A program made the translations under genes and the position numbers. A DNA stretch of 4,470 nucleotides. Source: a virus (lineage: Duplodnaviria; Heunggongvirae; Uroviricota; Caudoviricetes). This document shows positions 118 to 4,470 of the stretch, in pieces; the stretch's first letter is position 1; each line of letters opens with the position of its first letter. Below the pieces are notes generated by a model, which searched no databases, had not been told where the DNA came from, and saw only the letters and a list, made by a program, of their open reading frames with translations. The stretch lies in IMG/VR virus record IMGVR_UViG_2675903409_000005, one strand, 5' to 3'.

Positions 118-1614
118 ATGACGATAAGTTTTAATACTGTTCCGTCGAATACGCTGGTGCCGTTGTTCTACGCCGAGATGAACAATTCTGCGGCAAATAC
201 AGCGGTGACCAGCGCGCCTGCATTACTGATCGGGCATGCCAGCAACGATGCAGCCATTGAGGTTAACAGCCTGGTGCTGATGCCATCGGCAGATTATGCC
301 CGCCAGATTTGTGGGGCGGGGAGCCAGCTGGCGCGTATGGTGGAAGTCTACCGTCAGACAGATCCTTTCGGTGAACTGTATGTTATTGCAGTACCGGAAG
401 CCAGAGGGGCGGCGGCGACGGTCAGGGTGACGGTTGCCGGAGAAGCAGAGGAAAGCGGCACCCTGAGTCTGTATGTCGGGCGCTCCCGTGTACAGGTGCC
501 TGTGGTGAATGGCGATGATGCCACTGCGGTTGCCACCGCGATTAAGGAAGCGGTAAACGGGGTTATCACCCTGCCGTTTACGGCGTCATCTGATGCAGGT
601 GTGGTGACGCTGACTGCCCGTCATAAGGGGCTGTATGGTAATGAGTTACCGGTCTGTCTGAATTATTATGGTTCTGGTGGTGGTGAGATTCTGCCAGCAG
701 GGCTTCGGGTGGTGACGGAAGTCGGTGCTGCCGGTAGCGGAGCGCCTGATCTTACCGCCGCTGTTGCTGCTATGGGCGATGAGGCATTCGACTTTATCGG
801 TCTGCCGTTCAACGATGCCGCCTCCATCAATATGATGATGACCGAAATGAATGACAGCAGCGGTCGCTGGAGTTATGCGCGCCAGTTATACGGGCATGGC
901 TATACCGCAAAACTGGGAACGCTGTCAGAGCTGGTTGGTGCCGGAGATATGCATAATCAGCAACATATCACGCTTGCCGGTTACGAAAAAGAAACCCAGT
1001 CGCCTGTCGATGAACTGGTTGCCAGTCGCCTTGCCCGTGAAGCGGTATTTATCCGGAATGATCCTGCCCGTCCGACACAGACGGGGGAGCTGGTGGGGAT
1101 GCTTCCGGCACCGAAAGGTAAGCGATTCATCATGACAGAGCAGCAGACCCTTTTATCTCACGGCGTGGCGACGGCTTATGTGGAAGGCGGCACGTTGCAG
1201 ATCCAGCGTTCCGTAACCACCTACAAAAAGAATGCGTATGGCGTGGCAGACAACAGCTATCTGGACAGTGAAACTCTGCATACCAGTGCATATGTTCTTC
1301 GCAAACTGAAATCGGTCATCACAAGCAAGTACGGACGTCACAAGCTGGCAAATGATGGTACCCGTTTTGGTCCGGGGCAGGCGATTGTCACTCCTGCCGT
1401 TATCAAAGGGGAACTTCTGGCGACATATCGTCAGATGGAGCGTGCCGGTATTGTGGAAAATTACGATCTGTTTAAACAGTATCTGATAGTTGAGCGTGAT
1501 GCAGATAACCCGAACCGACTGAATACGCTGTTCCCGCCGGATTATGTTAATCAGTTACGTGTCTTTGCGGTGGTTAACCAGTTCCGTCTTCAGTATTCAG
1601 AGGAGTCAGCATAA
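118..1614 (+). CDS. Contractile phage tail sheath protein (Mu gpL-like)
   Basis: 498-aa ORF, first ATG after in-frame stops at 103-105 and 109-111. AAGG at 104-107 lies 10 nt upstream of the ATG. Length and N-terminal sequence fit the ~500-aa Mu-type sheath family as I recall it. It is followed directly by tube, chaperone and tape measure genes on the same strand. Its stop overlaps the next start (TAATG at 1612-1616). Confidence 0.85.
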   Translation: MTISFNTVPSNTLVPLFYAEMNNSAANTAVTSAPALLIGHASNDAAIEVNSLVLMPSADYARQICGAGSQLARMVEVYRQTDPFGELYVIAVPEARGAAATVRVTVAGEAEESGTLSLYVGRSRVQVPVVNGDDATAVATAIKEAVNGVITLPFTASSDAGVVTLTARHKGLYGNELPVCLNYYGSGGGEILPAGLRVVTEVGAAGSGAPDLTAAVAAMGDEAFDFIGLPFNDAASINMMMTEMNDSSGRWSYARQLYGHGYTAKLGTLSELVGAGDMHNQQHITLAGYEKETQSPVDELVASRLAREAVFIRNDPARPTQTGELVGMLPAPKGKRFIMTEQQTLLSHGVATAYVEGGTLQIQRSVTTYKKNAYGVADNSYLDSETLHTSAYVLRKLKSVITSKYGRHKLANDGTRFGPGQAIVTPAVIKGELLATYRQMERAGIVENYDLFKQYLIVERDADNPNRLNTLFPPDYVNQLRVFAVVNQFRLQYSEESA

Positions 1615-2305: not shown

Positions 2306-2397
2306 ATCCACTGGAGCTGCGACGGGGGGCTGTTTCGCAGTTTACAGAACTGGAAGCCGAGGCCGTCCGCATTAACGAGGAGATGAAGCATGGCTGA
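1970..2397 (+). CDS. Tail assembly chaperone, candidate -1 frameshift fusion product (GT-like, about 142 aa)
   Basis: Frame 1 is open from 2212 to TGA at 2395-2397. A T-TTT-TTT heptamer sits at 2233-2239 in the zero frame (codons cgT TTT TTT). After a -1 slip, translation continues YPVGDGKHLRKRLYNVAWFWKLNPLELRRGAVSQFTELEAEAVRINEEMKHG and ends 5 nt into the tape measure ORF. Confidence 0.5.
2233..2239 (+). promoter_or_regulatory. Candidate -1 ribosomal frameshift slippery heptamer (T TTT TTT)
   Basis: Seven consecutive T in X-XXY-YYZ register relative to the chaperone zero frame. It lies inside the only interval (2212-2305) where both the zero frame and the -1 frame are open. Confidence 0.45.
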
Positions 2398-4203
2398 CAG
2401 TTTTCAGCTGAAGGCGATCATCACTGCCGTGGATAAGGTATCGGCACCGCTGAAGGGAATGCAGCGCCAGCTGAAAGGTTTTAAAAAGGAGTTTGCCAGC
2501 CTGTTACTGGGCGCAGCGGGTGCCGGAACCGCAGTACTGGGGGCGCTGGCGCTCCCNNNNNNNNNNNNNNNNNNNNNNNNNNNNNNNNNNNNNNNNNNNN
2601 NNNNNNNNNNNNNNNNNNNNNNNNNNNNNNNNNNNNNNNNNNNNNNNNNNNNNNNNNNNNNNNNNNNGCAGAAGAATCCGGTCAGATGATGGCGCAGTGG
2701 CGCACTGCCTTTAAACTGACACAGGGAGAGGTGGCAGGGCTTGCGGATAAGATTAACTATCTTGGTAATACCGGTCCTGCAAGTGCGAAAAAGATTTCTG
2801 ATGTTGTGACCCGTATTGGCCCTTTAGGCAGTGTTGCGGGTGTGGCCTCCGGAGAGATTGCCGCAATGGGGGCAACCATTGCCGGAATGGGGGTGGAGTC
2901 AGAAATTGCTGCGACGGGGATAAAGAATTTTATGTTGTCGCTGACAGCGAGGGATTCTGCCACCAAATCGCAGAAAAAAGTGCTCCGCTCGTTGCGCATT
3001 AGCCCGAAAAAACTGGCGGCGGATATGCAGAAAGACGCCCGCGGGGCCATGCTGCACGTACTGGATTCTCTGGCAAAAGTGCCGAAAGAAAAACAGGCTG
3101 CTGTGCTGAAAGCGCTGTTCGGGAAGGAATCCCTGGGGGCCATTGCGCCGCTGCTCACGAATCTGGATTTGTTGCGAACCAACTTTAATCGTGTGGCGGA
3201 TGCGCAGCAGTATGGCGGCTCAATGCAGAAAGAATATGCCGCCCGTGCCGCGACGACAGAAAATCAGTTGTTGCTGCTGCAGAACCAGATCAATGCGATT
3301 TCTTCCACGCTGGGGGAAACCTTCCTGCCTTCACTCAATGAAGGCATAAAAGAGATGAAGCCTTTTCTGGAAGAAGTGCGCACGTTTGTCAGAGAAAATC
3401 CTGAGGTCGTAAAAACCATCGCGAAAACTGGTGCGGCATTACTGACGATGGGCGTGGCGATTGGCACATTGACACGCATAACAAAAATCATGGGTAGCGT
3501 GATGAATATGACGCCGGCAAAGGGATTAATTGCGCTTCTCGTCGGTGGTGCATATCTCATAATTGATAACTGGGAAACGGTCGGTCCGGTTGTGAAAAAA
3601 GTCTGGCAGGAGGTTGATCAGGTTGTCAGAGCAATGGGGGGATGGGAACAGGCAGTAAAAACAATAGCAACGGTTTCTGCCCTGTATATTGGTGTGAAGG
3701 CGGTGGCAAGTATTCGTGCGGCAACAGTCGCCCAGAATCAATGGACAACGGCGGCAGGAAAAACAGGGCTGAAATTAAAGGGCCTCGGAAAGATCAGTCT
3801 GATTGGTGGATTGCTTGAACTGGGCATGATGGCGCAGGAGTTTGAAAAAGCACATCCCTGGCTTGTTAAAAATTTTGTGGCTGATGCACTGAACAGTGGA
3901 TTTGGTCTGAATGATAAGTTCGACGAGTGGGGCAAACAGTTCCATGATTTTGTCTATGACATGACCGGATGGCAGATGCCACGTGGTGATGGGTATTTAT
4001 CTCCCGATAAACGCTACACCCCGAATGTATCACTGGAAAGGAATCAGCTGTTAAGCCTTGCATCTTCACCGGCAACCCGCAGCGAACTTAAGGTGACGTT
4101 TGACAACGCGCCGCCTGGAATGCGCGTTATCGATTTGCCGAAAACAGGCGATCCCTTTATGAAAATCACCCATGATGTTGGGTATTCTCCATTTAAAAGG
4201 TGA
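2390..4203 (+). CDS. Phage tail tape measure protein, interrupted by the N run at 2557-2667
   Basis: GAGGAG at 2377-2382 lies 7 nt upstream of ATG 2390. The N-terminal part (MADSFQLKAIITAVDKVSAPLKGMQRQLKGF...) runs into the N run. After the N run, frame 1 is open immediately (AEESGQMMAQW...) and continues to TGA at 4201-4203. The protein is long, Ala/Gly/Lys-rich and largely helical-looking, with hydrophobic segments (GLIALLVGGAYLII, ISLIGGLLELGMM) typical of tape measure proteins. Frames before and after the N run differ by one, so the N count is not the true length or the gene carries a frameshift. The ATG at 2686 from the ORF track is probably internal. Confidence 0.8.
2557..2667. other. 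Run of 111 N (assembly gap or masked sequence)
   Basis: Directly visible in the sequence. It lies inside the tape measure coding region. Confidence 0.95.
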
Positions 4204-4270
4204 GTTCTTTTTTTGTGGTGAAAGATGAGGCAAAATTATCGCGTAACATGCTAACAATGGAGTTTGTTTT

Positions 4271-4402
4271 GTGATAAAGCCATTTTTAATGACGGTTGCA
4301 ATATTAACCTCTTGCTGTGCTCAGGCGAAAATACTAACAAATGAGGAGATTGTTTCACGATTTATTAGTAACGTTAAAACGGTGATGCTGCCAACTTACT
4401 GA
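4271..4402 (+). CDS. Hypothetical small ORF with a lipoprotein-like signal peptide, 3' end replaced by IS1 sequence
   Basis: GGAG at 4259-4262 lies 8 nt upstream of GTG 4271. Translation is (M)IKPFLMTVAILTSCCAQAKILTNEEIVSRFISNVKT, with a short hydrophobic N-terminus and a lipobox-like LTSC. From codon 37 onward the ORF reads into the IS1 terminal repeat, so the native C-terminus is unknown. It is not in the supplied ORF track. An alternative ATG at 4341 (MRRLFHDLLVTLK) is also cut by IS1. Confidence 0.2.
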   Translation: MIKPFLMTVAILTSCCAQAKILTNEEIVSRFISNVKTVMLPTY

Positions 4403-4470
4403 TTTAGTGTATGATGGTGTTTTTGAGGTGCTCCAGTGGCTTCTGTTTCTATCAGCTGTCCCTCCTGTTC
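4381..4470 (+). mobile_element. IS1 insertion sequence, left end (terminal inverted repeat and 5' region), partial at the window edge
   Basis: GGTGATGCTGCCAACTTACTGATTTAGTGTATGATGGTGTTTTTGAGGTGCTCCAGTGGCTTCTGTTTCTATCAGCTGTCCCTCCTGTTC matches the canonical IS1 left end as I recall it, including the ~23-bp terminal repeat GGTGATGCTGCCAACTTACTGAT. insA begins at element position 56, as in IS1. Confidence 0.9.
4436..4470 (+). CDS. insA: IS1 InsA (transposition regulator), 5' partial, continues beyond the window
   Basis: GTG start at 4436 with GAGG at 4425-4428 7 nt upstream. Translation (M)ASVSISCPSCS matches the InsA N-terminus, including the start of its CxxC zinc-finger motif. Confidence 0.85.
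   Translation, partial: MASVSISCPSC

Follow-up and report, generated by a model that had tools for sequence, protein, structure and literature searches.

Simple insertion of IS1 into a small accessory gene at the end of a probable contig from a defective phiP27-like prophage of Shigella sonnei

The IS1 sequence that closes the stretch of DNA analysed here (4,470 nucleotides of the IMG/VR record IMGVR_UViG_2675903409_000005, hereafter the window) is a simple insertion, accompanied by neither deletion nor rearrangement. Our best explanation, which we consider highly probable as a whole and against which none of the observations speaks, is that the window comes from the chromosome of Shigella sonnei, where it covers the genes for sheath, tube, chaperone and tape measure in a defective phiP27-like prophage (i.e. 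one with a Mu-type tail), and that IS1 was inserted into this prophage in the simple manner described. The insertion is already visible in public S. sonnei genomes, including that of Ss046 (CP000038.1), and is an ordinary, known event.

By BLAST, nine S. sonnei chromosomes (including Ss046, the region of which is referred to as locus L010) were found to match the window with 100% identity over positions 1-2556 and 2668-4470. These nine records (4.78-4.87 Mb; eight of them complete chromosomes and the ninth a large contig; from independent projects) were chosen by an exact match to the 498-aa sheath protein (window 118-1614), and the sequence lying 3' of window position 4470 was inferred from the identical complete S. 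sonnei genomes. The IS-free comparison locus (L001) was taken from the closest relative with an empty IS1 site, Escherichia coli FDAARGOS_944 (NZ_CP065613.1).

The window closes with 90 nt (4381-4470, + strand) that form the beginning of a 768-bp IS1, as established by an exact inverted-repeat match: the 23-bp left inverted repeat (GGTGATGCTGCCAACTTACTGAT, 4381-4403) shows 0 mismatches, occurs a single time in the window and was matched by 0 of 200 shuffled sequences. The insA gene starts with a GTG at 4436 (IS1 nt 56), in agreement with the gene calls of the source genomes, and only its first 11 codons (4436-4470) fall inside the window. An earlier note, made from the letters of the window, had recognised in these 90 nt an IS1 left end with the insA start, placed about 180 bp downstream of the tape measure gene; the identification proved exact, and the distance is 177 nt from the tape measure stop codon (which ends at 4203). 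The end segment (window 4380-4470) is 100% identical over 91 nt to a second IS1 copy of the same genomes, and it also matches thousands of E. coli records annotated as ‘IS1-like element IS1A family transposase’.

The complete element in Ss046 (L010 14400-15167) measures 768 bp and carries both inverted repeats, the right-hand one (GGTAATGACTCCAACTTATTGAT, read inward from the end) being exact at L010 15145-15167. Its insA frame (91 aa) is intact, the A6C motif lies at IS1 nt 305-313, the conceptual -1 frameshift product InsAB' (232 aa; the transposase with zinc ribbon, HTH and DDE domains) is likewise intact, and the called IS1 genes are matched by the Pfam profiles PF03811, PF12759 and PF03400. 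All the defining features of IS1 that were tested (inverted repeats, 768-bp length, insA/insB frameshift layout and target duplication) were found. Judged from its sequence, the copy is apparently functional, and its intact frames, along with its identity to the second copy 4.4 kb away, would be consistent with recent IS1 activity.

The nature of the event is recorded in the flanks. The 9 bp that precede the element (cgttaaaac, 4372-4380, the left copy of the target-site duplication) recur directly 3' of the IS1 right inverted repeat (L010 15168-15176), and from this matched 9-bp duplication, with a full IS1 in between, we conclude that the element arrived by simple transposition. The search for the full 768-bp element and for the repeat at its far end, as well as the comparison with an IS-free relative, had been proposed in the earlier note, and both gave clear answers: the empty site of E. 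coli FDAARGOS_944 (which reads ttattagtaacgttaaaacatctgcag) holds a single cgttaaaac (L001 9473-9481), located inside a 160-aa coding sequence, the accessory gene, which in this genome is followed by the DNA circularization and baseplate genes. Both IS1 junctions were recovered in nine of the nine S. sonnei chromosomes, and in eight of them the two are separated by exactly 768 bp. Ten further E. coli genomes match the locus up to the junction with 96.5-99.4% identity (most of them exactly, two falling 1-2 nt short), and none of the ten has an IS1 at the junction. The local target is AT-rich (35-40% GC), as had been noticed before, and IS1 prefers AT-rich targets; this preference is not strict, since the second IS1 of the locus took the GC-rich GGGGGCGCA. 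As a separate observation, the junction span of the chromosome CP151301.1 (L007 14400-16434) amounts to 2035 bp (768 + 1264 + 3), with a copy of IS600 nested within IS1; the excess matches a 1264-bp IS600 together with a duplication of 3 bp.

Seen from within the window, where only IS1 comes after the tape measure region, it could be argued that IS1 mediated a deletion or rearrangement in which the genes for hub, baseplate and fibre were lost, leaving a tail module that ends at the tape measure, the more so as the prophage as a whole is IS-degraded. We regard this reading as extremely improbable, given the perfect 9-bp duplication around a full IS1, the fact that the DNA after IS1 resumes exactly where it stopped (by comparison with the empty site of L001) and the presence of baseplate and fibre genes directly downstream in all nine chromosomes. 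In these chromosomes IS1 gives way to the remainder of the interrupted gene and then to DNA_circ_N, GpP-like, Gp45, GP46, Baseplate_J, Gp48 and fibre genes (of the last, the start is called 3' of Gp48). The stretch L010 15168-19580 is colinear with L001 9473-13883 (98.9% identity) and L010 20348-21497 with L001 13874-15023 (99.7% identity); from the colinearity of both stretches we conclude that nothing is missing after IS1. Hence, where the earlier note had left the choice between insertion, deletion and rearrangement, the duplication and the empty site speak for the first, and colinearity with L001 disposes of the other two. Its suggestion that the tail module is cut off does not hold: baseplate genes lie directly after a cleanly inserted IS1 flanked by a duplication, which is the very arrangement that the note itself had named as telling against such a truncation.

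The second IS1 (L010 19580-20347) lies in inverted orientation and splits the baseplate J gene; all of its 768 positions agree with the first copy, and it is flanked by a 9-bp duplication of its own, GGGGGCGCA. With two such copies in opposite orientation (L010 14400-15167 and 19580-20347) bracketing the 4.4-kb segment from gpN to baseplate J, one may ask whether they recombined or form a composite unit, so that the segment was inverted or moved as a block. An inversion would, however, have split the duplication pairs, while each copy keeps its own matched duplication (cgttaaaac vs. GGGGGCGCA), and the orientation and order of the segment are as in IS-free relatives. The matched duplications and the unchanged gene order therefore indicate that no inversion took place between the two IS1 copies, and we deem this explanation highly improbable.

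We also considered that the IS1 junction might be an artefact of assembly (a chimera created in a draft contig by a false join between repeats), as repeats close the window at either end and a run of N lies within it. To this we give next to no credence, for the junction and the full element are present in nine chromosome-scale S. sonnei records from independent projects, and the junction recurs in the independent draft contigs L012 (4666 bp) and L013 (4498 bp), both of which start within IS600 and end within IS1, like the window. An exact search for the junction returned one 4498-bp contig from IMG/VR and no match from the species-representative genome collection. The sheath protein was indexed in 2065 collection blocks, and in 1888 of these the longest contig carrying it was only 2-5 kb long. 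We infer that the two ends of the window were most likely set by collapsed repeats, in which case it would be a short-read contig; the module looks truncated at IS1 because the sequence breaks off within a multi-copy repeat, as the short-read contigs of this region typically do. The site that extends from IS600 to IS1 (approx. 4.4 kb) appears to be fixed in S. sonnei, and it explains the recurrent 4-5 kb contig of S. sonnei short-read assemblies. We stress, as a lesson of method, that a contig ending inside a multi-copy insertion sequence mimics truncation even where the insertion is a simple one.

The DNA between the tape measure gene and IS1 had been described as an AT-rich spacer, a description that has to be withdrawn for most of its length: positions 4271-4380 are the 5' end of a 160-aa coding gene, and only 4204-4270 (from the tape measure stop to the start of the accessory gene, as read from the sequence and the annotation of L001) are intergenic. 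The accessory gene (+ strand) starts with a GTG at 4271, preceded by a ribosome-binding site (GGAG, 4259-4262), and the window holds its first 110 nt (36 codons and 2 nt); its product has a signal peptide with the lipobox L-T-S-C. Its intact homologue in E. coli FDAARGOS_944 (L001 9372-9854) encodes a protein of 160 aa (WP_000594909.1) that matches the profile phrog_5586 with E = 9.7e-89 (residues 1-160 vs. profile positions 1-161), residues 1-36 being those present in the window. IS1 cuts the gene after codon 36, and the truncated frame (4271-4402, 43 aa) runs into the element. A hypothetical protein of S. sonnei, SS323385_3177, also has 43 aa and belongs to the cluster of the accessory protein; its likeness to the stub is one of length and cluster. 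Another lesson of method is that what passes for a short ‘AT-rich spacer’ 3' of a late gene in a phage may turn out to be an accessory gene that was overlooked.

The position of this gene family is fixed: in the phiP27-like prophages of Escherichia, Shigella, Salmonella and Yersinia it has the tape measure gene on one side and the DNA circularization gene on the other, and homologues in Yersinia enterocolitica (L014 5001-5459) and in a metagenome contig (L015 5001-5423) were likewise located at this place behind the tape measure gene. The cassette that contains it has 35-40% GC, against 48-59% in its flanks, and a strong intrinsic terminator stands at its end; a simple scan found no sigma-70-like promoter upstream of the gene, and an Rfam scan of the window gave no match. 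On the side of S. flexneri, draft contigs (approx. 5.0-5.4 kb) extend from the tail terminator gene to variable ends within or just after an intact accessory gene, which suggests that the repeat or IS boundary in this species differs from the S. sonnei one.

The relatives of the accessory protein form only nine clusters among 5.8 billion proteins, and searches with the 160-aa protein against Pfam, NCBIfam, PADLOC and PDB sequences yielded no match. In one clade of the family the signal peptide contains a lipobox (L-T-S-C), in the other it is of the ordinary cleavable kind; C150 is invariant throughout the family, and a second cysteine (around residue 57) is kept in most members. Based on the signal peptide or lipobox and the cysteine pattern, we reason that the product is probably an exported envelope protein. 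An AlphaFold2 model built from an 8-sequence alignment reached a mean pLDDT of 40.8 and was unusable for a fold search. By its features in the sequence, the gene looks like a phage moron. That it encodes an envelope factor expressed in the lysogen (serving, e.g., superinfection exclusion or host interaction) is a speculative and rather doubtful proposal; if it were true, the inactivation of the gene in S. sonnei would represent another IS-driven loss of a surface protein.

For the simple insertion the following course may be envisaged, in line with the established mechanism of IS1 transposition, which we extend to the present copy. The InsAB' transposase, which owes its synthesis to -1 frameshifting at the A6C motif, would have cut the two strands of the target 9 bp apart, and these 9 bp would have been duplicated on repair. 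The target was codon 37 of the small AT-rich accessory gene, which has the tape measure gene on its 5' side and the DNA circularization (Mu gpN-like) gene on its 3' side. The insertion truncates the accessory gene to the 43-aa stub, with a probable loss of its function, and is presumably polar on the downstream tail genes; nothing was deleted.

The decay of the prophage is to be sought elsewhere. The window opens with the right-hand terminal 98 nt of an IS600 (IS3 family; 1-98, + strand; annotated as ‘IS3-like element IS600 family transposase’), which are matched exactly by an independent IS600 copy in L007, and phage DNA resumes at position 99, in the last 23 bp of a DUF2635 gene. In Ss046 the full IS600 (L010 8718-9981) is 1264 bp long, starts with TGAGG and ends with CCTCA, and its OrfAB transposase has the expected Pfam domains (HTH_Tnp_1 and rve). 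The 3-bp target duplication of IS600 is absent in L010 (the flanks are GAC and AGG), and the element replaces approx. 3.5 kb of L001 (the remaining prohead protease sequence, the genes for the major capsid, the connector, head closure and the tail terminator, and the greater part of DUF2635), which points to an IS600-associated deletion or recombination and not to a simple insertion. Upstream of IS600 in S. sonnei, an IS4 joins a fragment of the prohead protease gene to the bamD region. The gene set of a functional prophage or tailocin is thus incomplete, as IS600 stands in place of the head genes, IS4 in place of the region upstream of the protease fragment, and IS1 splits baseplate J. The S. 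sonnei prophage is a dead remnant with IS4, IS600 and two copies of IS1, and its decay was not caused by the IS1 at 4381; the earlier note was right in proposing a prophage tail cluster decayed by insertion-sequence activity, and wrong in attributing the decay to this particular copy, the degradation being the work of others (IS600, IS4 and the second IS1).

Unlike the S. sonnei copy, the related prophage of E. coli FDAARGOS_944 lies at tRNA-Ser/mtfA and has a full early region. It also carries ISEc60 insertions in its portal and sheath genes, and beside its fibre end we observed a frameshifted gene for the T3SS effector ipaHe (L017 8903-10544; L016). This strain may be an EIEC or a Shigella-like organism, and its prophage may be of the ‘ipaH island’ type.

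The remainder of the window is taken up by tail genes, all on the + strand: the tail sheath gene (118-1614; Phage_sheath Pfam domains; 96% DNA identity to phiP27 L44), the tail tube gene (1614-1970; PF10618, Tail_tube), the tail assembly chaperone gene (1970-2305, with a -1 frame extending to 2397; Pfam Phage_TAC_7) and the tape measure gene (2390-4203), which in complete genomes is an intact 649-aa PhageMin_Tail. The chaperone gene contains a T7 slippery run (2233-2239), and the -1 frame is open over 2212-2397, ending in a stop at 2395-2397 and overlapping the tape measure start at 2390. A programmed frameshift of this arrangement is reportedly conserved among tail chaperones (Xu et al. 2004), and the -1 extension may have gone unannotated here. 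At 2557-2667 a run of 111 N takes the place of 247 real bases (L010 12440-12686), so that the run does not preserve length, and it is because of this run that the tape measure gene is artefactually split into two open reading frames in the window. Together with the downstream genes, the complete series conforms to the phiP27-like (Mu-type) contractile order, i.e. sheath, tube, chaperone, tape measure, DNA circularization, gpP, gp45, gp46, J, gp48 and fibre.

The correspondence with phage phiP27 (NC_003356) is close. Its genes L44-L47 (sheath, tube, chaperone and tape measure) share 96% DNA identity with those of the window and stand in the same order, and the downstream genes of S. sonnei (DNA circularization, hub, gp45, gp46, J and gp48) follow the order of L48-L53 (L48-L54 if the fibre gene is included). 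In phiP27 the tape measure and DNA circularization genes are separated by a 15-bp gap with no gene in it, and its homology to the window stops at 4194, whereas the prophages of S. sonnei and FDAARGOS_944 possess at this place an extra AT-rich cassette (approx. 0.6 kb) with the accessory gene. With phage morons for exported proteins or lipoproteins, such as lambda Bor, phi80/N15 Cor and T5 Llp, which serve here as an analogy only, it shares a small AT-rich format within the late operon, a terminator of its own and a product with signal peptide and lipobox; as a difference, no named family of Pfam, NCBIfam, PADLOC or PDB shows detectable sequence similarity to the accessory protein.

The inserted element itself shows no structural difference from the IS1 copy located at yrhA in E. 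coli K-12 (IS1A/IS1E type): both have 768 bp, 23-bp repeats, insA at nt 56, the A6C motif, a 232-aa InsAB' and a 9-bp duplication, and they are identical at 765 of 768 positions (with substitutions at IS1 nt 127, 262 and 265), the present copy being the variant expanded in S. sonnei. These properties agree with IS1 as published (768 bp, a duplication of 8-9 bp and a frameshift-dependent InsAB' of 232 aa; PMC12428005). Regions of phiP27-like prophages have likewise been reported in S. sonnei (PMC5447701). The finding carries little biological weight; in Shigella it is usual for prophage remnants to have IS1 insertions. According to Hawkey et al. 2020 (PMC7373316), who seem not to treat this particular site, five IS types (IS1 and IS600 among them) account for 85% of the IS burden of S. 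sonnei, with IS1 having the most insertion sites, and the locus described here is a textbook example of the IS-driven degradation of Shigella genomes.
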